Shown: in pieces, positions 2,703 through 61,054 of the stretch | Position numbering within the stretch: position 1 is the first letter of the stretch | How the letters are laid out: the number at the start of each line of letters is the position of its first letter | Source: Escherichia coli | GTDB taxonomy: Bacteria > Pseudomonadota > Gammaproteobacteria > Enterobacterales > Enterobacteriaceae | Assembly: GCF_013315695.1 (NCBI RefSeq) | Contig: NZ_CP054355.1 | Length of the DNA stretch: 64,000 nucleotides | Direction: 5' to 3' (one strand) | The notes under the pieces: model-generated | Database searches by the model: none | Seen by the model: the letters and a program-made list of their open reading frames with translations, nothing else | What the model was told of the DNA's origin: nothing | Made by a program: the position numbers and the translations under genes

Positions 2703-3401
2703 AATCATGTCCAGATCCGGCAGAACCAGCCTCATGCGCAGTTCTGGCTGGTTTTTGACGTTGATCGCGAGGGGGCAGCGATTGACTGGAGCGACCGGAA
2801 CGCTCCCGCGCCGAACATCACCGTAAAAAATCCTGTGAACGGTCATGCTCACCTGCTCTACGCGCTCAATATCGCCGTGAGAACCGCGCCGGACAGCTCG
2901 GTTAAGGCGCTGAAATACGCCGCTGCGATTGAACGTTCGCTGTGTGAGAAACTTTGTGCTGATGTGAACTACAGCGGACTGATTTGTAAAAATCCGTTCC
3001 ACCTGGAATGGCAGGTGATGGAGTGGCGAGAGGAAGCCTATACCCTCGATGAACTGGCTGATTATCTCGATTTGAGCGCCTCAGCGCGCCGTAGCATCGA
3101 TAAACATTACGGGATGGGGCGAAACTGCCACCTGTTCGAAATGACGCGCAAATGGGCTTACAGGGCGATTCGTCAGGGCTGGCCCGAATTCTCACAGTGG
3201 CTTGATGCCGTGATTCAGCGTGTCGAAATGTACAACGCATCGCTTCCCGTTCCGCTTTCACCGCCTGAATGTCGGGCTATTGGCAAGAGCATTGCGAAAT
3301 ACACGCACAGGAACTTCACGCCGGAAACTTTCGCACAGTATGTGGCTGATACGCACACATTAACGTACGTTTTCGTTCCATTGGCCCTCACCCCCCGATA
3401 A
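2703..3401 (+). pseudogene. ColE2-type plasmid Rep (primase-type initiator) remnant, lacking N-terminus and C-terminal DNA-binding region
   Basis: In-frame translation from the stop at 2700 gives ...FWLVFDVDREGAAIDWSDRNAPAPNITVKNP..NGHAHLLYAL..ICKNPFHLEWQ.., as remembered for ColE2 Rep; no ATG/GTG/TTG start before the GTG at 2835; protein ends early. Confidence 0.55.
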
Positions 3402-3637
3402 CGACCCAGGTAGCGCGCCGTATTCCCCCCGCCGGCCGTTTTCTTCGACATGTACATCAGGCGCGGAACTCATCGGGGCGCGGGAATGAAATCCCATTCA
3501 GACTCCGGATAGATTCAAGCAAGCCCACTTATCGTCAAAATCGGTGTTGCAAAAACGGGAGTGACCATAGATCCGTTTTCCAAGCGGACCCATAATATCG
3601 GCTGGTAAACATCACTCGCTAGTGCATTCTTTTTGTT

Positions 3638-3657
3638 GGTAATGATAATCATTTACA
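3638..3657. promoter_or_regulatory. Fur box upstream of cjrA
   Basis: ggtaatgataatcatttac closely matches the Fur consensus GATAATGATAATCATTATC. Confidence 0.6.
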
Positions 3658-3732
3658 TTCATTCTTTGATGTTTTATCATAATTAATGTTTTGTCAATAA
3701 ATATATGGAAACATATTGTTTCAGATGGGAAT

Positions 3733-4608
3733 ATGAGAAAGTTCATCCTTATTTCTATGATAACGTTAGCTAGTGTTAGTCTGGGAGCCTGCAGACAGAA
3801 TGTCACCATAAAGCAGGATGCGCCAGGGCAGAAAGCTTTCCTGACTGACGGGCAGATTTACGATTTGCACAGTGGCAAAATTATTTCTAGCAGCGAGCTT
3901 TTGGCGGATCTTGCTACCGCTCAACATCTTATTATTGGTGAAAAACACGATAATGCCGAGCATCATCAGATTGAGCTTTGGCTTATTCAAAATTTGCTCA
4001 TCCAGCGACCACAGGGGAGTGTGTTGCTTGAGATGTTGACGTCAGAGCAACAGCCCCGAGTTAACCAAGTTAAATGTTGGCTGAAAGATAATCCTGTGGT
4101 TCGAGATAGCCGTGTTCAGGAACTACTTAACTGGCAAAAAGGGTGGTCCTGGGAGATGTATGGCGACATCGTCATGCAGCTATTACGTGGGCCTTACCCG
4201 CTGCTCAATGCCAACATTGGCCGGGAGCAGATATTGGCACTGTACAAAAAAAACGAATTTCCTAAAGGAAAAAAATCCACTGCACCTGTGGTACAAGAAG
4301 CTCTGCGTGAAACCATCATATCTATGCATGAAGGCAACCTTGAAAGCCAGCAACTGACGTCAATGCTCTCTATTCAGCAGCAGCGGGATCGCTACATGGC
4401 CCGCCAGCTTCTGAGTGCCCCGGTACCGTCGTTGTTGATTGCAGGTGGTTATCACGCGTCAAAAAGCATGGGCGTACCGTTACACATGGAAGATCTTGCC
4501 ACCGGCACCCATCCAGTGGTGTTGATGCTTGCAGAAAAAGGAATGAACATCACAGTAGATCATGCTGACTACGTGTGGTTTGTAGCGCCAGATACAACAA
4601 AAAGGTAA
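3733..4608 (+). CDS. cjrA: ChaN-like haem/iron-binding lipoprotein (CjrA-like)
   Basis: Signal peptide with lipobox-like SLGAC; size and position 5' of a TonB homologue and a TonB-dependent receptor as in the cjrABC-senB cluster. Confidence 0.55.
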   Translation: MRKFILISMITLASVSLGACRQNVTIKQDAPGQKAFLTDGQIYDLHSGKIISSSELLADLATAQHLIIGEKHDNAEHHQIELWLIQNLLIQRPQGSVLLEMLTSEQQPRVNQVKCWLKDNPVVRDSRVQELLNWQKGWSWEMYGDIVMQLLRGPYPLLNANIGREQILALYKKNEFPKGKKSTAPVVQEALRETIISMHEGNLESQQLTSMLSIQQQRDRYMARQLLSAPVPSLLIAGGYHASKSMGVPLHMEDLATGTHPVVLMLAEKGMNITVDHADYVWFVAPDTTKR

Positions 4609-4615
4609 ACCATGG

Positions 4616-5392
4616 ATGATGAATATTCTCCACTTCTCACAGTCGGTAAAATGGAGCAGCTGGTTTATCTGTTCTCTACTGCTTCATGGACTGATTTTCC
4701 TTGCGTTTATCTGGCGTTTTTCCGAAGTTCAGCCCGCTATGTCTCCTGCACCGGCGATCATGCTGCAATGGGCAGAAATTATAGAGGCTCCTTCTTCTCC
4801 ACTTTCGCTTCCGGTGGGAATCGCTCAACAGGAGTCCGCAGTGACAGAAGAAAAGCAACAAACTGAGGACAGACAACAACGTCCTGTCACTGAAGACAGT
4901 GATGCAACCATTGAAATAACTAGGAAGAAAAAGTCATCCGATGGAGAAAAGAAAAAGACACGTCCACCTCGTAAGATAAAGGCTCAAACCAGCGACAGCA
5001 ACCCCACAGCCGTTTCCAGTAATGCTGCACCTCAGGCTCTGGTCGAATCGTCCCGTATTGCTGCGCCTTTTAACAGTGACTCAACAAAGCGAGATAATTC
5101 TGAGGCATCTTGGGAAAGCAGAGTAAAAGGCCACCTAAACCGTTATAAACGTTACCCTGGCGATGCCAGAAAACGTGCACGAACCGGCACAGCCGTCGTG
5201 ACTTTTACCGTAAACACGGAAGGCACTATTGTCAGTAGTTTCTTGGAAATCTCTTCAGGAACCTTTTCTCTTGACCGCGAAGCTATTGCTGTTTTAGAAC
5301 GCGCTCAACCACTTCCCAAACCACCGCCTGAAATATTGGAGGGAGGATTATTTAAAGTAAAAATGCCGATTACCTTTAAGTTGAAGGAGTAA
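4616..5392 (+). CDS. cjrB: TonB-family energy transducer (CjrB-like)
   Basis: N-terminal membrane anchor, charged linker, C-terminal TonB-like domain (..GTAVVTFTVNTEGTIV...PLPKPP); 258 aa. Confidence 0.65.
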   Translation: MMNILHFSQSVKWSSWFICSLLLHGLIFLAFIWRFSEVQPAMSPAPAIMLQWAEIIEAPSSPLSLPVGIAQQESAVTEEKQQTEDRQQRPVTEDSDATIEITRKKKSSDGEKKKTRPPRKIKAQTSDSNPTAVSSNAAPQALVESSRIAAPFNSDSTKRDNSEASWESRVKGHLNRYKRYPGDARKRARTGTAVVTFTVNTEGTIVSSFLEISSGTFSLDREAIAVLERAQPLPKPPPEILEGGLFKVKMPITFKLKE

Positions 5393-5560
5393 AGGGATAA
5401 TTGGCCGTTCAAGTTCATTTAACTGAAATTTAATTTTCATTTTTATGCTGAACATTTTATCAAACTTTTCCACTGTCAAAAAAATCAAAAAGACAGTAGA
5501 ACATAATTAATAAACAAATAGTTATACTTATCTTTATTAATATTATACCCAAGGAAATTT

Positions 5561-7822
5561 ATGAACGTTATAAAACTGGCTATCGGCTCAGGCATATTAT
5601 TGCTCAGCTGCGGTGCTTACTCACAATCCATCAGTGAAAAAACTAATTCCGACAAAAAAGGAGCGGCAGAATTCAGTCCGCTCAGCGTTTCTGTCGGGAA
5701 GACGACCAGTGAGCAGGAAGCTCTCGAGAAAACAGGCGCGACCAGTTCCCGGACAACGGACAAAAACCTGCAATCACTTGACGCAACAGTGCGTAGTATG
5801 CCTGGTACTTATACTCAAATAGATCCTGGTCAGGGAGCAATCAGTGTGAATATTCGAGGCATGAGCGGATTTGGTCGTGTAAACACTATGGTCGATGGTA
5901 TTACCCAGAGTTTTTACGGAACCTCTACCTCCGGAACAACGACGCATGGTTCAACTAACAATATGGCTGGCGTACTTATAGATCCTAACTTACTGGTAGC
6001 AGTTGATGTTACACGCGGTGACAGCAGTGGCTCTGAAGGGATCAACGCCCTTGCCGGTAGTGCAAATATGCGTACTATTGGCGTTGACGATGTAATATTT
6101 AACGGTAATACATATGGCCTTCGTTCACGTTTCTCTGTCGGTAGTAATGGGCTGGGACGCAGCGGAATGATCGCCCTTGGTGGAAAAAGCGACGCTTTTA
6201 CGGATACGGGAAGCATTGGCGTTATGGCTGCTGTGAGCGGCAGTTCTGTGTACTCTAATTTCTCAAATGGTTCTGGAATTAACAGCAAAGAGTTTGGTTA
6301 TGATAAATATATGAAGCAGAACCCCAAATCCCAACTGTATAAAATGGATATCAGACCAGACGAATTTAACAGCTTCGAACTTTCCGCTCGAACCTATGAA
6401 AATAAATTTACACGTCGTGATATAACCAGTGACGACTATTACATTAAATATCATTACACCCCTTTTTCTGAATTAATTGACTTTAACGTAACGGCCAGTA
6501 CCAGTCGCGGTAATCAAAAGTATCGTGATGGCTCGCTGTATACTTTCTACAAAACCTCAGCGCAAAATCGTTCTGACGCGCTGGATATCAACAATACCAG
6601 CCGGTTCACTGTCGCGGACAATGACCTGGAGTTTATGCTGGGCAGCAAACTGATGCGTACCCGCTATGACCGGACCATTCACTCAGCGGCGGGCGACCCG
6701 AAAGCGAATCAGGAATCGATCGAGAACAATCCGTTCGCACCCTCCGGCCAGCAGGATATTTCAGCGCTGTATACCGGGCTGAAGGTTACGCGCGGCATCT
6801 GGGAGGCAGATTTCAATCTCAACTACACACGTAACAGGATCACAGGGTACAAGCCCGCCTGCGATTCACGCGTTATCTGCGTGCCACAGGGTAGCTACGA
6901 TATTGACGATAAAGAGGGTGGCTTCAACCCTTCAGTTCAGCTTTCTGCTCAGGTAACACCATGGCTTCAGCCGTTCATTGGCTACAGCAAATCCATGCGC
7001 GCCCCGAACATCCAGGAGATGTTCTTCTCTAATTCAGGAGGCGCATCCATGAACCCATTCCTGAAGCCTGAACGTGCAGAAACCTGGCAGGCGGGTTTTA
7101 ACATTGATACCAGAGATTTACTGGTCGAACAGGATGCCCTGCGCTTTAAGGCTCTGGCGTACCGCAGCAGGATCCAGAACTACATCTACAGCGAGTCTTA
7201 TCTGGTTTGTTCTGGAGGTCGTAAATGCAGTCTGCCTGAGGTGATTGGCAATGGCTGGGAGGGCATTAGCGATGAATACAGCGACAATATGTACATCTAC
7301 GTTAACTCGGCAAGCGACGTTATCGCAAAGGGCTTCGAACTGGAGATGGATTATGATGCAGGTTTTGCTTTTGGCCGACTCTCTTTCAGCCAGCAGCAAA
7401 CAGACCAGCCAACCTCCATCGCCAGCACCCACTTTGGCGCAGGGGATATAACCGAACTGCCCAGAAAATACATGACGCTGGATACTGGTGTTCGCTTCTT
7501 CGATAACGCGTTGACCCTGGGCACTATCATAAAATACACAGGCAAGGCTCGTCGCCTGTCGCCTGATTTTGAGCAGGACGAACATACCGGCGCAATAATC
7601 AAACAGGATTTGCCGCAGATCCCAACGATTATCGATCTCTATGGTACTTACGAGTACAACCGCAACCTGACACTGAAACTTTCGGTACAAAACCTGATGA
7701 ACAGAGATTATTCGGAGGCGCTGAATAAGCTCAACATGATGCCAGGTCTTGGTGACGAGACCCACCCAGCCAATTCCGCGCGTGGCAGAACATGGATATT
7801 TGGCGGGGACATTCGTTTCTGA
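5561..7822 (+). CDS. cjrC: TonB-dependent outer-membrane receptor (CjrC-like)
   Basis: 753 aa, signal peptide, C-terminal ...GGDIRF ending in aromatic residue typical of TonB-dependent receptors. Confidence 0.7.
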   Translation: MNVIKLAIGSGILLLSCGAYSQSISEKTNSDKKGAAEFSPLSVSVGKTTSEQEALEKTGATSSRTTDKNLQSLDATVRSMPGTYTQIDPGQGAISVNIRGMSGFGRVNTMVDGITQSFYGTSTSGTTTHGSTNNMAGVLIDPNLLVAVDVTRGDSSGSEGINALAGSANMRTIGVDDVIFNGNTYGLRSRFSVGSNGLGRSGMIALGGKSDAFTDTGSIGVMAAVSGSSVYSNFSNGSGINSKEFGYDKYMKQNPKSQLYKMDIRPDEFNSFELSARTYENKFTRRDITSDDYYIKYHYTPFSELIDFNVTASTSRGNQKYRDGSLYTFYKTSAQNRSDALDINNTSRFTVADNDLEFMLGSKLMRTRYDRTIHSAAGDPKANQESIENNPFAPSGQQDISALYTGLKVTRGIWEADFNLNYTRNRITGYKPACDSRVICVPQGSYDIDDKEGGFNPSVQLSAQVTPWLQPFIGYSKSMRAPNIQEMFFSNSGGASMNPFLKPERAETWQAGFNIDTRDLLVEQDALRFKALAYRSRIQNYIYSESYLVCSGGRKCSLPEVIGNGWEGISDEYSDNMYIYVNSASDVIAKGFELEMDYDAGFAFGRLSFSQQQTDQPTSIASTHFGAGDITELPRKYMTLDTGVRFFDNALTLGTIIKYTGKARRLSPDFEQDEHTGAIIKQDLPQIPTIIDLYGTYEYNRNLTLKLSVQNLMNRDYSEALNKLNMMPGLGDETHPANSARGRTWIFGGDIRF

Positions 7823-7890
7823 TGACAATTTCCGCTAGGTTCAGACAATACGTTTTCTCTCTTATGTCAATTTTATTGCAGGAACGAAAA

Positions 7891-9066
7891 ATGAATATTT
7901 TCACTTTATCCAAAGCACCGCTATACCTGTTAATTTCACTATTTTTACCCACGATGGCCATGGCTATCGATCCACCTGAACGCGAACTTTCGCGATTTGC
8001 CCTGAAAACGAATTACCTTCAGTCCCCTGATGAAGGCGTCTATGAACTGGCGTTTGATAATGCCAGTAAAAAGGTGTTTGCAGCAGTCACCGATCGTGTA
8101 AATCGTGAAGCCAATAAAGGCTATCTGTATTCGTTTAATTCAGATTCGCTGAAAGTCGAAAATAAATACACGATGCCATACCGGGCATTTTCGCTGGCGA
8201 TAAATCAGGATAAACATCAGCTCTATATCGGACACACCCAGTCAGCGTCCCTGCGTATCAGTATGTTTGACACCCCAACCGGCAAACTGGTAAGAACCAG
8301 CGACAGGTTAAGTTTTAAAGCGGCAAACGCTGCAGATTCGCGTTTTGAGCATTTTCGCCATATGGTTTACAGCCAGGATTCCGATACCCTGTTTGTGAGT
8401 TATAGCAATATGCTGAAAACGGCCGAGGGCATGAAGCCTCTGCATAAGCTGTTAATGCTCGACGGGACGACGCTTGCCTTAAAAGGCGAGGTTAAGGATG
8501 CTTACAAAGGTACAGCGTATGGTCTGACGATGGATGAAAAAACACAGAAAATCTACGTTGGCGGAAGAGATTACATCAACGAAATTGATGCGAAAAATCA
8601 GACGCTGCTGCGTACCATCCCGTTGAAAGATCCGAGACCACAAATCACAAGTGTGCAGAATCTGGCGGTGGACTCCGCTTCTGACCGTGCCTTTGTGGTG
8701 GTATTCGACCATGACGATCGTTCCGGTACAAAAGATGGACTCTATATTTTTGACTTACGCGACGGTAAACAGCTTGGCTATGTGCACACAGGAGCCGGAG
8801 CTAACGCGGTGAAATACAATCCGAAATATAACGAACTGTATGTCACCAACTTCACTAGCGGCACCATCAGCGTAGTGGATGCCACCAAATACAGCATCAC
8901 CCGTGAATTTAACATGCCGGTCTACCCAAACCAGATGGTGTTGTCGGACGATATGGATACCCTTTACATTGGCATCAAAGAAGGCTTTAACCGCGATTGG
9001 GATCCTGATGTGTTTGTGGAAGGAGCTAAAGAACGTATTCTGAGCATTGATTTGAAAAAGTCGTGA
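7891..9066 (+). CDS. senB: SenB/TieB-like secreted protein with YVTN-type beta-propeller repeats
   Basis: About 391 aa from MNIFTLSK with signal peptide; repeated KIYVGG / ELYVTNFTSG / LYIGI motifs; position after cjrC as in cjrABC-senB. Confidence 0.5.
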   Translation: MNIFTLSKAPLYLLISLFLPTMAMAIDPPERELSRFALKTNYLQSPDEGVYELAFDNASKKVFAAVTDRVNREANKGYLYSFNSDSLKVENKYTMPYRAFSLAINQDKHQLYIGHTQSASLRISMFDTPTGKLVRTSDRLSFKAANAADSRFEHFRHMVYSQDSDTLFVSYSNMLKTAEGMKPLHKLLMLDGTTLALKGEVKDAYKGTAYGLTMDEKTQKIYVGGRDYINEIDAKNQTLLRTIPLKDPRPQITSVQNLAVDSASDRAFVVVFDHDDRSGTKDGLYIFDLRDGKQLGYVHTGAGANAVKYNPKYNELYVTNFTSGTISVVDATKYSITREFNMPVYPNQMVLSDDMDTLYIGIKEGFNRDWDPDVFVEGAKERILSIDLKKS

Positions 9067-9339
9067 TCGGGGGGAAAAAACATGGGATAAAAACTCCGTT
9101 ATTCCACTAAACTGGCCGGACTAGGAAAAGCAAACATCTCTGTCCTGCCGGTACGCCTGTTACGCCGCTCCATGAGGCTGAGGAATCTCCAGAAAACGAG
9201 ACAGGCACAGCATTGTACGATCAACTGATTTGTGCCAATAATTAAATGAAATCACAGCTATGCCTGTTCATGGGGTTCTAGGCCGGAACCCCAGATTTTT
9301 CCGATTGTTTGTTTTCTAACTGATTATTCAGTAGTTTTA

Positions 9340-9377
9340 GAGGGCTGACGCTCAGTGGAACGAAAACTCACGTTAAG
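9340..9377. repeat. Tn3-family 38-bp terminal inverted repeat-like sequence (isolated end)
   Basis: gagggctgacgctcagtggaacgaaaactcacgttaag closely resembles the Tn3 IR GGGGTCTGACGCTCAGTGGAACGAAAACTCACGTTAAG. Confidence 0.65.
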
Positions 9378-9406
9378 AGGTTTTGACTATGATAAAAGTC
9401 AAAGTA

Positions 9407-9443
9407 GGGGTGAGTTTGGATATGGAAATTATTGTACTATAAG
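9407..9443. repeat. Tn3-family-type IR-like 37-mer (copy A)
   Basis: GGGGTGAGTTTGGATATGGAAATTATTGTACTATAAG; GGGG...TAAG architecture; near-identical copy at 23728-23765 in the same orientation. Confidence 0.5.
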
Positions 9444-9588
9444 GAGAGCATGAAAAACCCTGGGGCAGTCACTGAATGAGGGACCAGCAGCGGTAAAATA
9501 ACCAGCATAATTTCTGCATGGTCGATTTTTATACCGTGACAGGCTGTTTTTTATACTTGCACCGATTCCCGGGCACACTTAGCCTGTG

Positions 9589-9865
9589 TCAGGCCGGCAT
9601 ATACCTCAGCAGACTGATATCCCGCGCGTTTTTCTTCAGCCCTGATACATTCAGCCCCGCAATGGCCCGGCGGTATACCATCCGGCCGCCGCACAGCACG
9701 CATTCGAACGGGTCACGACTCAGGAACTGTTTCACCATTTGTGCATAGCACACTTTCGCCACTGCTTCCGGTTTATCCATCCCCAGAGCACGGTACACCT
9801 GCGGCAGCTTCTCTCCACACACCCGGTTGGCAAGGAACCCGAAGTACCTCACCATCTTAAAAAAC
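9589..9865 (-). pseudogene. IS91-family-like transposase C-terminal fragment, N-terminally truncated by IS629
   Basis: ..VRYFGFLANR..CVLCGG.. resembles the C-terminal region of IS91/ISCR-type transposases; ORF abuts the IS629 end. Confidence 0.35.
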
Positions 9866-9919
9866 TGAACCGCCCCGGGAATCCTGGAGACTAAACTTCC
9901 TGAGAAAGAGGTAAACAGG

Positions 9920-10246
9920 ATGACTAAAAATACTCGTTTTTCCCCCGAAGTCCGTCAACGGGCAGTCCGTATGGTTCTGGAAAGTCAGGGCGAATATGAC
10001 TCACAATGGGCGACAATTTGTTCCATTGCCCCAAAGATTGGCTGTACACCGGAGACTCTGCGTGTCTGGGTACGCCAGCATGAGCGGAATACCGGAGGCG
10101 GTGATGGCGGGCTCACCACCGCTGAACGTCAGCGTCTGAAAGAGCTGGAACGTGAAAATCGTGAACTGCGCCGCAGTAACGATATCCTTCGCCAGGCTTC
10201 CGCTTATTTTGCGAAGGCGGAGTTCGACCGCCTCTGGAAAAAGTGA
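9920..10246 (+). CDS. IS629 transposase OrfA
   Basis: [19 protein letters not shown]... HTH/leucine-zipper OrfA of the IS3 family. Confidence 0.8.
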
Positions 10247-11133
10247 TGCCACTGCTGGATAAGCTGCGTAAGCTGTACGGGGTCGGACCGGTATGCAGTG
10301 AACTACATATTGCCCCGTCAACGTATTACCACTGTCAGCAACAGCGACATCATCCTGATAAACGCAGTGCCCGTGCGCAGCGCGATGACTGGCTGAAGAA
10401 AGAGATACTGCGCGTATACGATGGGAATCATCAGGTATACGGTGTGCGTAAAGTCTGGCGTCAGTTGTTACGGGAAGGAATCAGGGTAGCCAGATGTACA
10501 GTGGCGCGCCTCATGGCGGTTATGGGACTTGCCGGTGTTCTCCGGGGTAAAAAGGTCCGCACTACCGTCAGCCGGAAAGCCGTTGCCGCAGGCGACCGCG
10601 TAAACCGTCAGTTTGTGGCAGAACGTCCTGACCAGTTGTGGGTGGCTGATTTTACTTACGTCAGCACATGGCAGGGGGTCGTCTATGTGGCGTTCATCAT
10701 TGATGTGTTTGCCGGATACATCGTGGGGTGGCGGGTCTCATCGTCTATGGAAACGACATTCGTGTTGGATGCTCTGGAGCAGGCGTTATGGGCCCGTCGA
10801 CCGTCCGGCACGGTCCATCACAGTGATAAAGGTTCTCAGTATGTATCGCTGGCCTACACACAGCGGCTTAAGGAAGCCGGATTACTGGCATCAACAGGAA
10901 GTACAGGCGACTCGTATGACAACGCGATGGCGGAGAACATCAATGGTCTTTACAAAGCGGAGGTAATACACCGTAAGAGCTGGAAAAACCGTGCAGAAGT
11001 GGAACTGGCCACACTCACGTGGGTGGACTGGTATAACAATCGACGATTGCTGGAAAGGCTGGGCCATACTCCTCCGGCAGAAGCAGAAAAAGCTTATTAT
11101 GCTTCCATCGGAAACGATGATCTGGCAGCCTGA
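10243..11133 (+). CDS. IS629 transposase OrfB (DDE catalytic domain)
   Basis: IS3-family OrfB overlapping orfA in the -1 frame. Confidence 0.8.
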
Positions 11134-11175
11134 GTTCACAGATAAAACACTCTCCAGGAAACCCGGGGCGGTTCA

Positions 11176-23727: not shown

Positions 23728-23765
23728 GGGGTCAGTTTGGATATAGAGAATTATTGTACTATAAG
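23728..23765. repeat. Tn3-family-type 38-bp IR-like sequence (copy B)
   Basis: GGGGTCAGTTTGGATATAGAGAATTATTGTACTATAAG; same orientation as copy A. Confidence 0.5.
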
Positions 23766-24318
23766 GACTTCCCCGGCATGTCAACGCCGGTGTTTACGGT
23801 TTCTGTCTGCACTATAGTAAAAAAATAAAGGGGAGAGACTGCGGTACTATAAACGATCATGATGAATCGTCATCGATTCGGACCCTGATGAAAGACGCTC
23901 GTGAGGCTCTAGTTCGTTAGTCGGGTACACTTGCCCTGTACAATAAGCAGATATACCTCACGGGGTCTAACCCTTTATCATCAACGAGTTGCAGATCAGA
24001 TGGTCATACAGCTTTGTACTTTAGCTGGCTGAGTACAACCTGAAATCATCACCGTAATGCAATGATGCCCAGCACAGTCTTGCATTTTTGGCAGCGATGG
24101 CAACAACAGCGCGCCAGTATCCTCTGCGTTCGACCAGTGAGCAGACCCAACGACTGAATAAATCAGTCCTTTTCTCCGCCCCGATCAGTACCGAGCGGGC
24201 ACCCTGAACCAGAAGTGTTCTCAGATACGAATCGCCAGCTTTCGTTATCCTGCCAAGCTTCGACTTTCCGCCGCTGCTGTACTGCGATGGTGTCAGTCCC
24301 AGCCAGGCTGCCAGCTGG
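23766..24318 (-). mobile_element. IS110/IS1111-family element 3' fragment (transposase C-terminus at about 24021-24318), truncated by IS26
   Basis: ..LAAWLGLTPSQYSSGGKSKLGRITKAGDSYLRTLLVQGARSV.. is an IS110-family C-terminal signature. Confidence 0.5.
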
Positions 24319-24687
24319 GGCACTGTTGCAAAGTTAGCGATGAGGCAGCCTTTTGTCTTATTCAAAGGCCTTACATTTCAAAAACTCTGCTTACCAGGCG
24401 CATTTCGCCCAGGGGATCACCATAATAAAATGCTGAGGCCTGGCCTTTGCGTAGTGCACGCATCACCTCAATACCTTTGATGGTGGCGTAAGCCGTCTTC
24501 ATGGATTTAAATCCCAGCGTGGCGCCGATTATCCGTTTCAGTTTGCCATGATCGCATTCAATCACGTTGTTCCGGTACTTAATCTGTCGGTGTTCAACGT
24601 CAGACGGGCACCGGCCTTCGCGTTTGAGCAGAGCAAGCGCGCGACCATAGGCGGGCGCTTTATCCGTGTTGATGAATCGCGGGATCT
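24319..24687 (-). mobile_element. IS26 partial copy (right IR plus 3' end of tnpA26), interrupted by the Tn3-family transposon
   Basis: IR ggcactgttgcaaa at 24319; ORF ends ...KGQASAFYYGDPLGEMRLVSRVFEM as in IS26 Tnp; identity stops at 24687. Confidence 0.8.
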
Positions 24688-24720
24688 GGGCTCCGTTTGG
24701 GAAACGGAAAATATTGTACG

Positions 24721-27708
24721 TTAAGGCTGTTTTTTGTACTGACTGACATCAACTGCTCGCAAAGGACGATACTTCCCTTCAGCCAGCTTCTTATTGTTTT
24801 TCCAGATATAGTCCCCTGTCAGATTAATGTGCTCCCAGCCCAGCGGAGACAAATGTGACAACAATTGCTCATTAATATGTAGCCCTTTCTTTTTCAGCAG
24901 GTTAATGGCGTTTTCTATATATACGGTATTCCACAAAGTGATTGCGGCAGTGAGCAGCGTAAGCCCACTGGCGCGGTAACTCTGGTTTTCAATACCACGA
25001 TCCCTTATTTCTCCCAGACGATGCATGAAGACAGCTCTGGCAAGGGCATTCCGGGCTTCCCCTTTGTTCAGACCTGCCTGAACCCTACGACGAAGCGCCG
25101 GATCGCGGAACCAGTCCAGCATGAACAGTGTTCGCTCAATACGACCAATTTCTCTTAACGCCTTAGCAAGGCCATTCTGTTTCGGATAACTGGTCAATTT
25201 TTTCAGCATCAGAGAAGCGGTCACTGTTCCCTGTTTTATTGAGGTCGCCAGTCTCAGAATTTCATTCCAGTGTATTTTTATCTCTTTGATATTCAGGGGG
25301 GTTGTGGAGATAATTGACTGTAGAGCAGGATAGTTATCAGCTTTACCTTGAATAAACAAACGTTTGTCATGCAGATCCCGGATCCTTGGGGCAAAAGCGA
25401 ATCCCAGCAGATGCATTAGTGCAAAAACATGCTCCGTGAAACCTGCTGTATCGGTGTAATGTTCCGTTATATCAAGGTCACTTTCGTGATACAGAAGACC
25501 ATCAAGTACGTGGGTGGAATCACGAACACGACTGATTACTTTGGTATAAAACGGACTATATTGATCTGAGATATGCGTATAAAACTGCACCCCAGGTTCC
25601 TGACCGTACTTCAAATTAACCTGACCGGCATAGCGCCCATGACTGCCAACCCTAAAATTCTGGCCGTCAGAGGATGAGGTGGAACCGTCTCCCCATAATG
25701 CCGCCAGCGGTCGTGACTTCTGGGCATTAACCAGTTCTGCCAGTGCAGCAGAGTACGTTTCATCACGGATGTACCATGCTTGTATGTTTTCCAGCGAAGC
25801 TCGTGTGGTTCCCGGACAGGACTCTGCCATTTTTTCCAACCCTAGATTGATGCCGTCCGCCAGGATAGTGGTTAGTAGTAAACGATTATCCTGAGGACGG
25901 ATTAGCGGATTCTTAAGATGAGTAAAATGTCGCGAGAAGGCAGTCCATCGCTCGACTTCATCAAGTATCTCTGTAATTTTGGGGTGCGGTAGCATGTTGT
26001 AAATCAGGTCGGCCAGGGGAGAGACTGTTGAAGGAACGCTGTTATCCAGTGGGGTGATCTTTACACCTTTATCTGAAATATCCACATCAGGAAGCTCCCC
26101 TGCGACAGCCATTGCGTTAACTTCCTCCAGACGGGAGGCCAGTAGAGTCAGTCTGGCATTAAGATAAGCCCCGCATTCTGTGCCAACAGGTAAATTTAAT
26201 AGGTTATTATTTAATAACTTTTCGAAATCATCGTTAGGCATAAGATAATCATCAAAGTTTTTGTAGCGCCGGGAGCCCCTGACCCAGATATCACCCGCCC
26301 GCAGCGCCCCCTTTAGCTCATTCATTGCGCAAATTTCATAGTATTGTCGGTCAATGCCTGAGGGGGTGACCACCATCTTTCTCCAGCTCTCAGGAATGAA
26401 ATCCAGTGGTGCCGATGCAGGAACCTTTCGTAGCTGTTTACGGTACATATCACGAATAGTTTCAAGGGCATCATTAAGCGGCAACGCTGCCGAAGTGGCT
26501 CTCAGTTGCAGGGCCGATAGAAAACGAAAAGAATATTTGCGCAATGTACTGAATTTTTCGGTAATAAGATGAAGCGGCTCAAAATTATCCTTACGTGCAA
26601 GAAGCTTTGTTTCCTCCAGACTGGCGACAAAATCGTCCCACGGTAACACTCGTTCAATAGCAGACAGAGGATCTTCGCCTGCATTGCGTGCATCCAGGAT
26701 AGCCTGGCCAACAGAAACATACTGACGTAACTTTTGCTGTATCAACTTGCCCGTTTTCTGAAGACGCTCAGCCTGCTGATGTTTTGCCCGACTGAACATG
26801 CTGCCTAGAATACGTTCATGCAGTTCTATAATTTCATCAATGATTGTGGCTCTGGCCTCAGTCAGTACACAGACCATCGTTGCGTATCGACGAGCAGGGG
26901 AAAAATCAGCCAGATCGCGACTGCTCATTTTGCGGCCCTCACGCGCGAGTTTCAGCAATCGGTTCTGGTGAACGGTTCTCTCCACTCCTTCCGGCAGCGC
27001 CAGAGCTTCAATAGCGTTAAGGCGGTCAATGTGTTGCAGGACATTCTTTCCATTGATTTTCCCTGGAGGTTGAAGCAGCCACGTCAAACGGGATATTTGT
27101 TTTTCATTTGTCACCAACAGGGCATCAAGCGCAGATTTATGCGTGATATCAAGGTGCGCATTCAGCGTTGTATACACCGTTTTATCACCCAGTGTCATTG
27201 CTTCTGCACAGGTACGTTCCAGAACATCAATGCCTGGAATAATAATTCGCTGTTGATGCAGGTACTTTAGTAACTCCTCTGCGATAAGTATGCCTCTGTC
27301 CGTTCTGGTAGACAGAGGGAGCAGATGCCGGATACATTCTTTCTGAAGTGCACCGTTAAAGGCTTTCAGTTCAAGATATCGATAAAGTTCCCTCATATGC
27401 TCACGTCTGGTGGTATCACGACCGGAAACGTATTCCTGCCAAAGTTCTGCTGATAACTTAAGTCGAGCGCCAATGGTTTTTAGCAATTTTGCGGGTGGGG
27501 ATGATTTTTTATCCGGGGCAAACCCAATACTTTTCAGATAACAGAGAAGAACGGCAAAACCAAACCGGCTGGCAGGTTTACGGTGAGCATTGATAATTGC
27601 CAGATCCTGCTCACTGAAATACGTCATTCGAGTCAGTGTTAACTCATCGTCTGGCAATGCCAGTAATGATTCTCTTTCCGATAGAGAAAGAATCTGCCTC
27701 CTTGCCAT
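24721..27708 (-). CDS. tnpA: Tn3-family transposase TnpA
   Basis: 995 aa; stop codon lies inside the terminal IR as in Tn3-family elements. Confidence 0.8.
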   Translation of the reverse strand: MARRQILSLSERESLLALPDDELTLTRMTYFSEQDLAIINAHRKPASRFGFAVLLCYLKSIGFAPDKKSSPPAKLLKTIGARLKLSAELWQEYVSGRDTTRREHMRELYRYLELKAFNGALQKECIRHLLPLSTRTDRGILIAEELLKYLHQQRIIIPGIDVLERTCAEAMTLGDKTVYTTLNAHLDITHKSALDALLVTNEKQISRLTWLLQPPGKINGKNVLQHIDRLNAIEALALPEGVERTVHQNRLLKLAREGRKMSSRDLADFSPARRYATMVCVLTEARATIIDEIIELHERILGSMFSRAKHQQAERLQKTGKLIQQKLRQYVSVGQAILDARNAGEDPLSAIERVLPWDDFVASLEETKLLARKDNFEPLHLITEKFSTLRKYSFRFLSALQLRATSAALPLNDALETIRDMYRKQLRKVPASAPLDFIPESWRKMVVTPSGIDRQYYEICAMNELKGALRAGDIWVRGSRRYKNFDDYLMPNDDFEKLLNNNLLNLPVGTECGAYLNARLTLLASRLEEVNAMAVAGELPDVDISDKGVKITPLDNSVPSTVSPLADLIYNMLPHPKITEILDEVERWTAFSRHFTHLKNPLIRPQDNRLLLTTILADGINLGLEKMAESCPGTTRASLENIQAWYIRDETYSAALAELVNAQKSRPLAALWGDGSTSSSDGQNFRVGSHGRYAGQVNLKYGQEPGVQFYTHISDQYSPFYTKVISRVRDSTHVLDGLLYHESDLDITEHYTDTAGFTEHVFALMHLLGFAFAPRIRDLHDKRLFIQGKADNYPALQSIISTTPLNIKEIKIHWNEILRLATSIKQGTVTASLMLKKLTSYPKQNGLAKALREIGRIERTLFMLDWFRDPALRRRVQAGLNKGEARNALARAVFMHRLGEIRDRGIENQSYRASGLTLLTAAITLWNTVYIENAINLLKKKGLHINEQLLSHLSPLGWEHINLTGDYIWKNNKKLAEGKYRPLRAVDVSQYKKQP

Positions 27709-27874
27709 ATAGTTATCCTTGTTAATTATTTAGTACGTTATTTTTGATGAAAAGGTTATTGCATAAGGGTACACCCTGATGCGAGATATAAAATGTGACC
27801 TCATACAAATAATGACATAACCTATATGCGATAGAATATATGCAACAACCTAAATGCGACAATGCGGTGAAAAA
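27709..27874. promoter_or_regulatory. res site / divergent promoter region between tnpA and tnpR
   Basis: AT-rich intergenic region with repeated atgcga-containing subsites. Confidence 0.5.
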
Positions 27875-28516
27875 ATGTTCATCAGAGCTTATTTAAGGGC
27901 GTCAACAGAAGATCAGTTTGCAGATCGAGCAAAAGAGATGCTGGAACAGTTCGTCCAAGAACGGGGGCATAAAATTGCCAGTTATTATCGGGAGAACATA
28001 AGCGGTACAAAACTTGACCGTCCGGAACTGAAACGCTTACTGATGGACAGTCACCGTAATGATATTTTGCTGGTCGAGCAGATAGACCGCCTGACCCGAC
28101 TGAGTAACAGCGACTGGATAACGCTGAAAAAGCAGATAGAACAACACGAACTGCGGATTGTCAGTCTGGATGTTCCAACATCATGGCAAGCCCTGTCAGA
28201 TAAAGATCCTTCACAATCAGATCCGATTACCCGCGCAGTGATAACTGCAATAAATAATATGCTTATAGACCTGATGGCCGCGATGTCGCATAAGGACTGG
28301 CTGAGTCGTCGCCAACGCCAAAAACAGGGAATTGAACGAGCTCATACGTTGGGTAAATACCGGGGAAAACAGGCCGATCAGGAACGTCATCAGAAAGTGT
28401 TGTACTACAGACAAGTAAAAAAACTCAGCATTAGAGAAACAGCAGATGCAACGGGCTACAGCACTTCGCAGGTTTGTCGCATTCAGGCTCTCTATAAAGA
28501 GGTTAAACCTGATTAA
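27875..28516 (+). CDS. tnpR: serine recombinase (resolvase TnpR-like)
   Basis: MFIRAYLRASTEDQ N-terminal serine-recombinase motif. Confidence 0.7.
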   Translation: MFIRAYLRASTEDQFADRAKEMLEQFVQERGHKIASYYRENISGTKLDRPELKRLLMDSHRNDILLVEQIDRLTRLSNSDWITLKKQIEQHELRIVSLDVPTSWQALSDKDPSQSDPITRAVITAINNMLIDLMAAMSHKDWLSRRQRQKQGIERAHTLGKYRGKQADQERHQKVLYYRQVKKLSIRETADATGYSTSQVCRIQALYKEVKPD

Positions 28517-28959
28517 AAAACAGCCTTAACGTACAATATTTTCCGTTTCCCAAACGGAGCCCTGCTAGCCTTTTCGTAATCATGCCATTGGAGATCATCT
28601 GGATTGATGTTAGGCATGACGTCTTGGCTGTAAAGCAAAAAATCAAGTGAGTCATCCATGATCTTCTCAAAACGCTTACTGCGGTTGTTTCTGTCACTAA
28701 TAGAGCCCGCCTGATACCACCTTTCCGACAACTGCCGATATCGAAGGAAGTGCTCATCCTCTTTCAGTTGATGAAACTGGTTCCTGATTTGTGCATCAAG
28801 CCGAATTGCCAGACCAGTAAAATCAGGTAACACAACCTTATGAGGGGCATTTTTGGGAGAAATCAGAGAAATGAATTCAGAAACCTGCATATCCTTGCTC
28901 TGAGGCCCGTAACGTTTATCAGAGCGGCGGGTGCCAATAAAAAAGCTTTCAATCGTCAT
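28513..28959 (-). CDS. hypothetical protein; 3' end replaced by Tn3-family IR sequence
   Basis: 148-aa ORF whose last ~16 codons are encoded within the transposon IR. Confidence 0.3.
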   Translation of the reverse strand: MTIESFFIGTRRSDKRYGPQSKDMQVSEFISLISPKNAPHKVVLPDFTGLAIRLDAQIRNQFHQLKEDEHFLRYRQLSERWYQAGSISDRNNRSKRFEKIMDDSLDFLLYSQDVMPNINPDDLQWHDYEKASRAPFGKRKILYVKAVF

Positions 28960-60559: not shown

Positions 60560-60730
60560 TACGGCTAAAGCCGTAATACCTCCCCATCCAGCTTCAAGCT
60601 ATGTAGAAACTTATGTGGGTAGAGCAGTCCCGACAGGGCAGTACCGCATTGACAGGCCGTCAGGGCCGCTTACGAGCTTGTATGACAAGGGGGGCCTAGC
60701 GAATTATTGTACGGTAAGCCTTTTTTGAAC
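60560..60730. other. structured non-coding element Y (diverged homologue of element X)
   Basis: Shares ccccatcc...cttYtgtg...gtcccgac...ggccgtcagggccgcttacgagcttgta with 29640-29770. Confidence 0.35.
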
Positions 60731-61054
60731 AGCCTTACCTATTGCTATAGAGGGGAACTCCTACGTTATACGCCGCTTTCAGGGGATTCGACCTTAATGA
60801 GACAACTCAAATATGATCGACAACTTAAACGCGATAGTTGCTGATAAAATCAATCCATTACGCGTTTCAATTGATTAAATAATGCACTTAATGTACAAAA
60901 ATTCCCGATCTCAAAACTGAACCCTAAAGATACCAGGCATCTCCCCCAGGAAGCGCCCTCATGCGTTTTCCTGTTCCGCCCCTGCCACCTACCTTCTGTT
61001 ACATACTTGTTGTATTATTGTTTTTGTTTTCAATCCCCAAGGAGACGTCGCTAT

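Follow-up and report, generated by a model that had tools for sequence, protein, structure and literature searches.

Stacked mobile-element termini downstream of senB in a pUTI89/pRS218-type virulence plasmid, probably a scar of serial nested insertion and deletion

In Tn3-type transposons, the inner part of the terminal inverted repeat (IR) is the domain bound by the transposase TnpA, and one Tn3 IR on its own confers target immunity, as the classic literature established. Insertion sequences (ISs) of the IS110/IS1111 type, in turn, integrate by an RNA-guided mechanism. Some members of this family are directed at transposon ends: IS4321 and IS5075 target the 38-bp IRs of Tn21-family transposons, as cited in PMC11187229, and IS1618 interrupts the tnpA end of Tn6901/Tn6399b (Tn6399) (PMC6339943). 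Miniature Tn3-derived elements (TIMEs) have also been documented (PMC4133298, PMC13367494). The locus described here, which lies in a 64,000-nucleotide stretch of Escherichia coli contig NZ_CP054355.1 (the window), carries remnants that can be compared with several of these systems.

The window plasmid is a pUTI89/pRS218-type IncF virulence plasmid. NC_007941, CP007150 and hundreds of further E. coli plasmids share bases 9000 to 9900 at 100% identity, and for the 206 bp from 9240 to 9445, matches with at least 80% coverage number 529 among PLSDB plasmids and 503 among complete E. coli genomes. In the records of these relatives no annotated feature lies under the matched stretch, and the region downstream of senB/tieB is annotated with transposase fragments only. 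A sequence-only reading of this DNA had reported two stacked Tn3-family-type repeats at 9340-9377 and 9407-9443 and had proposed a nested insertion followed by deletion. Both motifs, which lie ∼270 bp downstream of senB/tieB, are located and spelled correctly, and both match Tn3-family termini, the first at 36 of 38 positions and the second through an IR type found at real transposon ends. They belong, however, to a longer array (Table 1) starting ∼200 bp downstream of senB, and the proposed scenario, while broadly right and consistent with two related plasmids and with an unrelated right flank, accounted for two of seven element termini; the repeat at 9272, the ISKra4-family end, the IS1294 fragment and the complete IS629-like element had been missed. 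Of the seven, 68, 67, 31, 5-7, 72 and 351 bp are kept, followed by one complete IS, and all ends have the same orientation. Taken together, bases 9272 to 11175 probably represent a non-functional scar of serial nested mobile-element insertions downstream of senB, from which the right halves have been lost.

Table 1. Features of the region downstream of senB (window coordinates)
Feature	Coordinates	Strand	Remarks
senB/tieB gene	7891..9066	+	100% identical to the annotated TieB/senB CDS of pRS218 and pUTI89
IR0, terminal 68 bp of a long-IR-class Tn3-family element	9272..9339	+	IR ∼9272-9311 = GGGGTTCTAGGCCGGAACCCCAGATTTTTCCGATTGTTTG
IR1, Tn3/Tn2-type 38-bp terminal inverted repeat	9340..9377	+	GAGGGCTGACGCTCAGTGGAACGAAAACTCACGTTAAG, 36/38 identical
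Interior of the IR1 element, 29 bp	9378..9406	+	weak likeness to Tn2/Tn3 bla-proximal interior, roughly 50-70%
IR2, outer 31 nt of a 38-bp Tn3-family IR	9407..9437	+	positions 1-32, one base missing
TATAAGG, terminal 5-7 nt of an IS1618-like IS (IS110 family, IS1111-type)	9438..9444	+	last 2 nt common to next element
ISKra4-family left terminal 72 bp (ISKpn19 relative)	9443..9514	+	begins GGAGAGCATGAAAAACC
IS1294 (IS91 family) fragment, 351 bp	9515..9865	-	end downstream of tnpA and C-terminal part of transposase ORF
IS629-like IS3-family element, complete, 1,310 bp, innermost	9866..11175	+	terminal repeats TGAACCGCCCCGGG... and ...CCCGGGGCGGTTCA
IS629-like orfA	9920..10246	+	Pfam HTH_Tnp_1 and rve (orfA and orfB)
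IS629-like orfB	10243..11133	+	Pfam HTH_Tnp_1 and rve (orfA and orfB)

The outermost layer, IR0, is a third Tn3-family repeat beginning GGGGTTCTAGGCCGGAACCCCAGATTTTTCCG... (also given as GGGGTTCTAGGCCGGAACCCCAGA...), located 68 bp upstream of the 9340 repeat and oriented like it. It resembles both a published Tn3-family IR, GGGGATGTAAGCCGGAACCCCAGAAATTTCCG... (PMC6851574), and a published long IR of the family, GGGGGTGTAAGCCGGAACCCCAGAAAATTCCGTC (bioRxiv 10.1101/2020.12.23.424275), and its first 32 nt recur at ∼94% identity in roughly 2,000 plasmids. The intermediate state is preserved in the IncI1 plasmid L022 (comparison sequences carry L numbers), where positions 3842-3909 are 91% identical to the 68 bp of IR0 and the IR0 element runs on uninterrupted, without IR1. 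Homology between L022 and the window breaks off precisely at 9339/9340, where IR1 has its outer base, which is the signature left by an IR1 element entering the IR0 element 68 bp from the end. That the IR starts are spaced almost equally (68 and 67 bp) was treated as a coincidence; in L022 the IR2-type repeat lies 215 bp from IR0. The right-hand limit of the cjrABC-senB virulence module is marked by the 9272 repeat and is thus a Tn3-family end.

Two further observations concern this outer boundary. The first 32 nt of IR0 often adjoin an inverted IS1294 end, as in L023. At the other side of the module, a Tn1000 (gamma-delta)-like repeat, GGGGGGTGAGGGCCAATGGAACGAAAACGTACGTTAAT, lies on the minus strand at 3359-3396, where the RepFIB replication gene ends, and its outer end points toward cjrA; two different Tn3-family relics thus flank the cjrABC-senB segment (3397-9271), each with its outer end facing it.

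Compared with the Tn3 repeat GGGGTCTGACGCTCAGTGGAACGAAAACTCACGTTAAG, IR1 has mismatches at positions 2 and 5, its outer end reading GAGG instead of GGGG, while the inner 33 nt (positions 6-38) are 100% identical and the TAAG inner end is kept. It is the sole match to the Tn3 IR in the window, and 100 shuffles produced none, in agreement with its earlier description as a Tn3-like 38-bp IR. That the motifs are chance resemblances has a negligible probability, given this match and the presence of the IR2 type at real transposon ends. At the locus, IR1 is found without a terminal GGGG, a partner IR, a 5-bp target duplication or tnpA. Because GAGG replaces GGGG and interior genes are lacking, IR1 is a relic and not a competent end.

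The bases that follow IR1 retain some likeness to Tn3-group interiors. BLAST matches to Tn2/Tn3 ends reach 9385, 8 bases beyond TAAG, and 9335-9404 is 83% identical to L011. The 29-bp spacer at 9378-9406, which holds a 7-bp AT-rich hairpin, shows weak residual likeness when aligned to the bla-proximal ends of Tn2 and Tn1331 and to IR-adjacent sequence of the E. coli BEN2908 chromosome. Judged from these alignments, IR1 and the next 29 bp form the tip of a diverged element of the Tn3 subgroup. In likeness to Tn3, Tn2 and Tn1, it has 36 of 38 IR positions, the TAAG end and a first ∼8 interior bases resembling the bla-proximal end; unlike them, it has the GAGG end and a fast-diverging interior, and tnpA, tnpR, bla, the partner IR and the target duplication are all missing. 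Matches that extend a few bases to the left of IR1 in Tn2/Tn1331 contexts were set aside as AT-rich chance extensions.

The second motif of the sequence-only reading, the 37-mer at 9407-9443, occurs once in the window, with 0 copies expected by chance. Its outer part belongs to an IR type, GGGGT[C/G]AGTTTGGATAT...ATTGTAC, present in >5,000 plasmids. Calling the two repeats unrelated was too strong: both are Tn3-family IRs, of different subgroups. In pKPS77 (L012), the IR2-type repeat overlaps the 3' end of a 995-aa Tn3-family tnpA. RefSeq names the product of this transposon type only 'Tn3 family transposase', Tn5403 or Tn6901 being putative names, and searches of the full-text literature with the IR2 sequence returned unrelated primer matches only.

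Comparison with IR2-type relatives indicates that the 37-mer has two sources. The relatives used were L012 and window 24688-24725, located beside a 995-aa transposase, and the solo or TIME-like copies L006 and L022. In these uninterrupted repeats the inner end reads G[T/A/G]TAAG and is followed by ...TTTTTTG...; the copy at L022 4057-4094, for instance, ends GGTAAG with a similar continuation, and the native transposon interior after the repeat reads ...TTTTTTGA... Position 33 is G in six of the seven uninterrupted IRs examined and A in the remaining one (60887, ATTAAG), and T in none. Copies that read TTGTAC-TATAAGG (L007, L013, L014/pMT1, L015 and window 23728) continue as GCTTCCCC... into an IS1618-like IS110-family element, and in each copy that bears the IS, the IS1618-like terminus opens with TATAAGG as its first 7 nt. 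When the 37-mer is aligned, only positions 1-32 (31 nt here) match the IRs of intact elements, and the last 6 nt match the IS1618-like terminus. The 37-mer is accordingly read, on alignment grounds, as a probable chimera of 31 nt of IR and a 6-nt IS1618-like tip instead of an intact terminal repeat. The TATAAG tip resembles the displaced inner end GTTAAG, which is how the 37-mer passes for a full GGGG...TAAG repeat. Thus, 9407-9437 stands as a Tn3-family IR, while TATAAG does not belong to it.

The sister plasmid pSTEC17_183-a (L015) supplies the second intermediate state. It has the same backbone, with 99.5% identity over 9240-9444, and keeps an IS1618-like element directly after the 37-mer, reading TATAAGGGCTTCCCC into an IS110-family transposase pseudogene. 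Since only TATAAGG is left at 9438-9444 in the window, the membership of this piece in the IS1618-like group rests on L015. An alternative is that the 37-mer is a complete variant IR natively ending TATAAG, with the ISKra4-like element of the window and the IS1618-like element of L015 each lying at or in its inner boundary. The IS1618 target TTGTAC/GTTAAGG (a slash marks the insertion point) does resemble TTGTAC/TATAAGG, so that an IR with TATAAG could remain a target; L015 no longer has the far side of the IS, and the direction of change is not directly readable there, and in L008 TATAAGG is followed by sequence other than the usual IS1618. Nevertheless, position 33 is never T in the seven uninterrupted IRs, TATAAGG equals the IS1618-like terminus exactly in each IS-bearing copy, and the sister plasmid L015, identical over the 205 bp upstream, carries the IS, which leaves a native TATAAG ending unlikely. 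The chimera of IR2 and IS1618-like tip is therefore retained as the preferred reading.

The properties of the IS1618-like element itself are read from its better preserved copies. In L013 and L014 the junctions are ...TTGTAC/TATAAGGGCTTCCCC...GGGGAAGTCCCTTCCATTC/GTTAAG, followed by normal transposon interior; with both junctions available, the IS is placed between IR positions 32 and 33. The features of the IS110 family, namely the transposase, subterminal inverted repeats and a fixed site and orientation, are found in L013, L014, L015 and window 23760-24320. The subterminal repeats are AGGGCTTCCCC and GGGGAAGTCCCT (L013, L014), and the transposase is of the DEDD type (NF033542 match, 356 bits). 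As with IS4321/IS5075 and with IS1618 in Tn6901/Tn6399b, an IS110-family element occupies one position, in one orientation, within a Tn3-family 38-bp IR. In contrast to IS4321/IS5075, the target here is the other IR type described above, and the window keeps just the 5-7 nt at 9438-9444, a larger IS1618-like fragment being kept at 23760-24320. The insertion also touches the host gene: in L012 the tnpA stop codon lies inside the IR (6001-6038), which is why an insertion between positions 32 and 33 changes the last two TnpA codons and lengthens the frame, which runs into the IS in L013 and L014. This codon replacement is presumably what the literature terms the interruption of tnpA by IS1618.

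The junction of IR positions 1-32 with TATAAG matches the uninterrupted IR at 36 of 38 positions. By rebuilding a near-complete repeat, the IS1618-like tip might keep the end of the host transposon recognisable to TnpA, in which case the 37-mer would be the fossil of a rebuilt end; we regard this as improbable. Were such end mimicry real, the transposon, or its immunity signal, would outlast the insertion with the IS as its passenger. In any case, a GGGG...TAAG signature should be read with caution, since a chimera that joins a transposon repeat to an IR-targeting IS can show it as well.

The next layer corresponds to the left end of an ISKra4-family element. Its GGAGAGC boundary starts at the same first base in the ISKpn19 copies L004, L009 and L010, which lie in three different flanks (a truncated umuC, a Tn3-family tnpA fragment and relE), and the ISKpn19 relatives L005, L019 and L020 share this start, so that the boundary is fixed from six independent flanks. 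The closest relative, L020 (∼95%), continues into pRiA4b-ORF3-family and serine-recombinase genes. Compared with ISKpn19, bases 9443-9514 are ∼80% identical to the left end and share its first base, whereas the window keeps 72 bp with neither transposase nor passenger genes: the fragment stops at the IS1294 junction, before any family transposase gene. Two other interpretations of the GGAGAGCATGAAAAACC module, a leader peptide and the interior of the IR2 transposon, were ruled out by the three ISKpn19 copies that start GGAGAGC behind different left flanks. An Rfam scan of 9050-9950 at a permissive E-value returned nothing relevant, and no RNA element therefore stands behind the conserved module. 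Specific targeting of the IR/IS1618 junction by the ISKra4-like element was also ruled out, as copies L004, L005, L009, L010 and L019/L020 occupy unrelated flanks; among the ISKra4-like copies, L003 alone shares the flank of the window.

The two innermost layers belong to the IS91 and IS3 families. The IS1294 fragment, labelled 'IS91 family transposase, missing N-terminus' in RefSeq, is 97-98% identical to IS1294 copies over 351 bp, with matches that start at ∼9513-9515 and stop at 9866, and includes the natural end TGCATGGTCG as read from the full copy in L021. Unlike complete IS1294, it is truncated at 9865/9866, and its transposase gene lacks the N-terminal three quarters. The IS629-like element that follows has no 3-bp target duplication, its flanks being AAC and CTT, and to its right lies a fragment of an autotransporter gene, not the remainder of IS1294.

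From this arrangement we infer the following order of events. A long-IR Tn3-family element (IR0) would have come to lie beside senB, and a Tn3-like element (IR1) would have inserted 68 bp inside that end. The IR1 element may then have received, 29 bp inside IR1, a third Tn3-family element or a miniature derivative of one (IR2). Next, an IS1618-like IS110/IS1111-type element would have entered IR2 site-specifically between positions 32 and 33, presumably by the RNA-guided route known for its family, and an ISKpn19-like ISKra4-family element would have arrived 5-7 nt inside it. IS1294 may have followed, 72 bp inside the ISKra4-like element, and the IS629-like element would have cut IS1294 351 bp from its end. 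Finally, one or more deletions or IS-mediated rearrangements would have removed all right-hand halves, leaving the left termini. Intermediate states are preserved in L022 and L015; the order is tentative for the layers that have none, IR2 (in the IR1 element) and IS1294 (in the ISKra4-like element).

The common orientation of the ends follows from nesting alone: whatever inserts into an element has a left end that reads, GGGG to TAAG, in the direction of the host's left end. When both strands of the 64-kb window were scanned with up to 14 mismatches, no inverted copy of IR1 or of the 37-mer was found, which confirms the earlier statement that neither has a correctly inverted partner nearby. 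Other Tn3-family IRs lie farther off, at 3359-3396 (-), 23728 (+), 24688 (+)/28525 (-) and 60887 (-). The absence of the right halves from the window points to at least one deletion or IS-mediated rearrangement, and the IS629-like element without target duplication fits their loss. Three aspects of the locus count against the reading as a nested scar. That just 5-7 nt of the IS1618-like element precede the ISKra4-like end is a coincidence recognised a posteriori; the 29-bp interior is only weakly Tn3-like; and the ETEC CS5 plasmid p504237_142 (L003) has a ∼86% version of the junction whose divergence is not easily reconciled with descent from a single recent event. The L003 copy (3996-4085) comprises the inner IR2 half, TATTA and the ISKra4-like end, and is cut on the left by IS1.

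The same orientation data bear on an alternative in which the two repeats delimit a miniature Tn3-derived element (TIME/MITE) or act as a functional tandem-IR transposon end. Elements of the TIME kind that carry IR2-type repeats do exist, at window 60690-60924 and in L006, and the scar shares with TIMEs the character of a short DNA with Tn3-family IRs and no transposase. The repeats of the scar, however, are direct and not inverted, belong to different IR subgroups, and are damaged: IR1 is without the terminal GGGG, IR2 without its inner 6 nt, and neither a partner nor a 5-bp duplication accompanies them. The scar is thus not a TIME, and we consider either variant of this explanation highly improbable.

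The serial scar most likely has no function. Its relics could conceivably have been kept because IR1 gives the plasmid transposition immunity in cis against Tn1, Tn2 and Tn3, an idea suggested by the complete identity of IR1 positions 6-38 to Tn3 and by the 100% conservation of the scar in >500 sequenced plasmids. This conservation is, however, explained by the recent common ancestry of pUTI89-type plasmids, and many plasmids that carry the scar show further matches to the query elsewhere in the record, which may be Tn2/Tn3 ends. Retention for immunity is unlikely. All the kinds of element and the IR-targeting behaviour were already known, and the locus is an ordinary mosaic scar of plasmids that reveals no new biology. 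Its value is mainly that each piece of a stretch conserved but unannotated in virulence plasmids of the pUTI89/pRS218 type can now be given a label, and that the scar records the order in which mobile elements struck the flank of senB.

Related elements occur elsewhere in the window. Window 23728-24687 begins with a second IR2-type repeat (32 nt) with an IS1618-like element at the same position (23760-24320), which has a C-terminal transposase ORF at 24021-24365 and is cut by an IS26 fragment from 24321. A DsbA-family gene that borders the iron-uptake cluster is cut short by the 23728 repeat, and pTHO-008_1 (L007) has the same arrangement. The IS26 fragment holds an inserted 3,875-bp cryptic Tn3-family transposon (24688-28562) with paired 38-bp IRs of the related type at 24688-24725 and 28525-28562 (GGGCTCCGTTTGGGAAACGGAAAATATTGTACGTTAAG), a 995-aa TnpA (NF033527, 1146 bits) and a 220-aa serine recombinase. 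Its flanks, GATCT and TGCTA, represent no target duplication, and their dissimilarity points to a rearrangement after the insertion. Among E. coli RefSeq plasmids, the best matches reach just 79% coverage of 9000-33000.

The TIME-like miniature at 60690-60924 is 235 bp long. Its left repeat, GGGGGGCCTAGCGAATTATTGTACGGTAAG, is of the IR2 type with an internal deletion, and its right repeat, GGGTTCAGTTTTGAGATCGGGAATTTTTGTACATTAAG, is inverted; the miniature has no 5-bp duplication, and its interior resembles L006 7042-7110 and L022 4095-4140. Stacks of ends in the same orientation recur in unrelated plasmids. In the mcr-5 plasmid p160-11H1_3 (L008, 5344-5690), an IR2-type repeat (32 nt) is followed by TATAAGG..., then by a 38-bp Tn21-like repeat with a 13-bp partial duplication and, after ∼230 bp, by the terminal repeat of the Tn3-family transposon that carries mcr-5.
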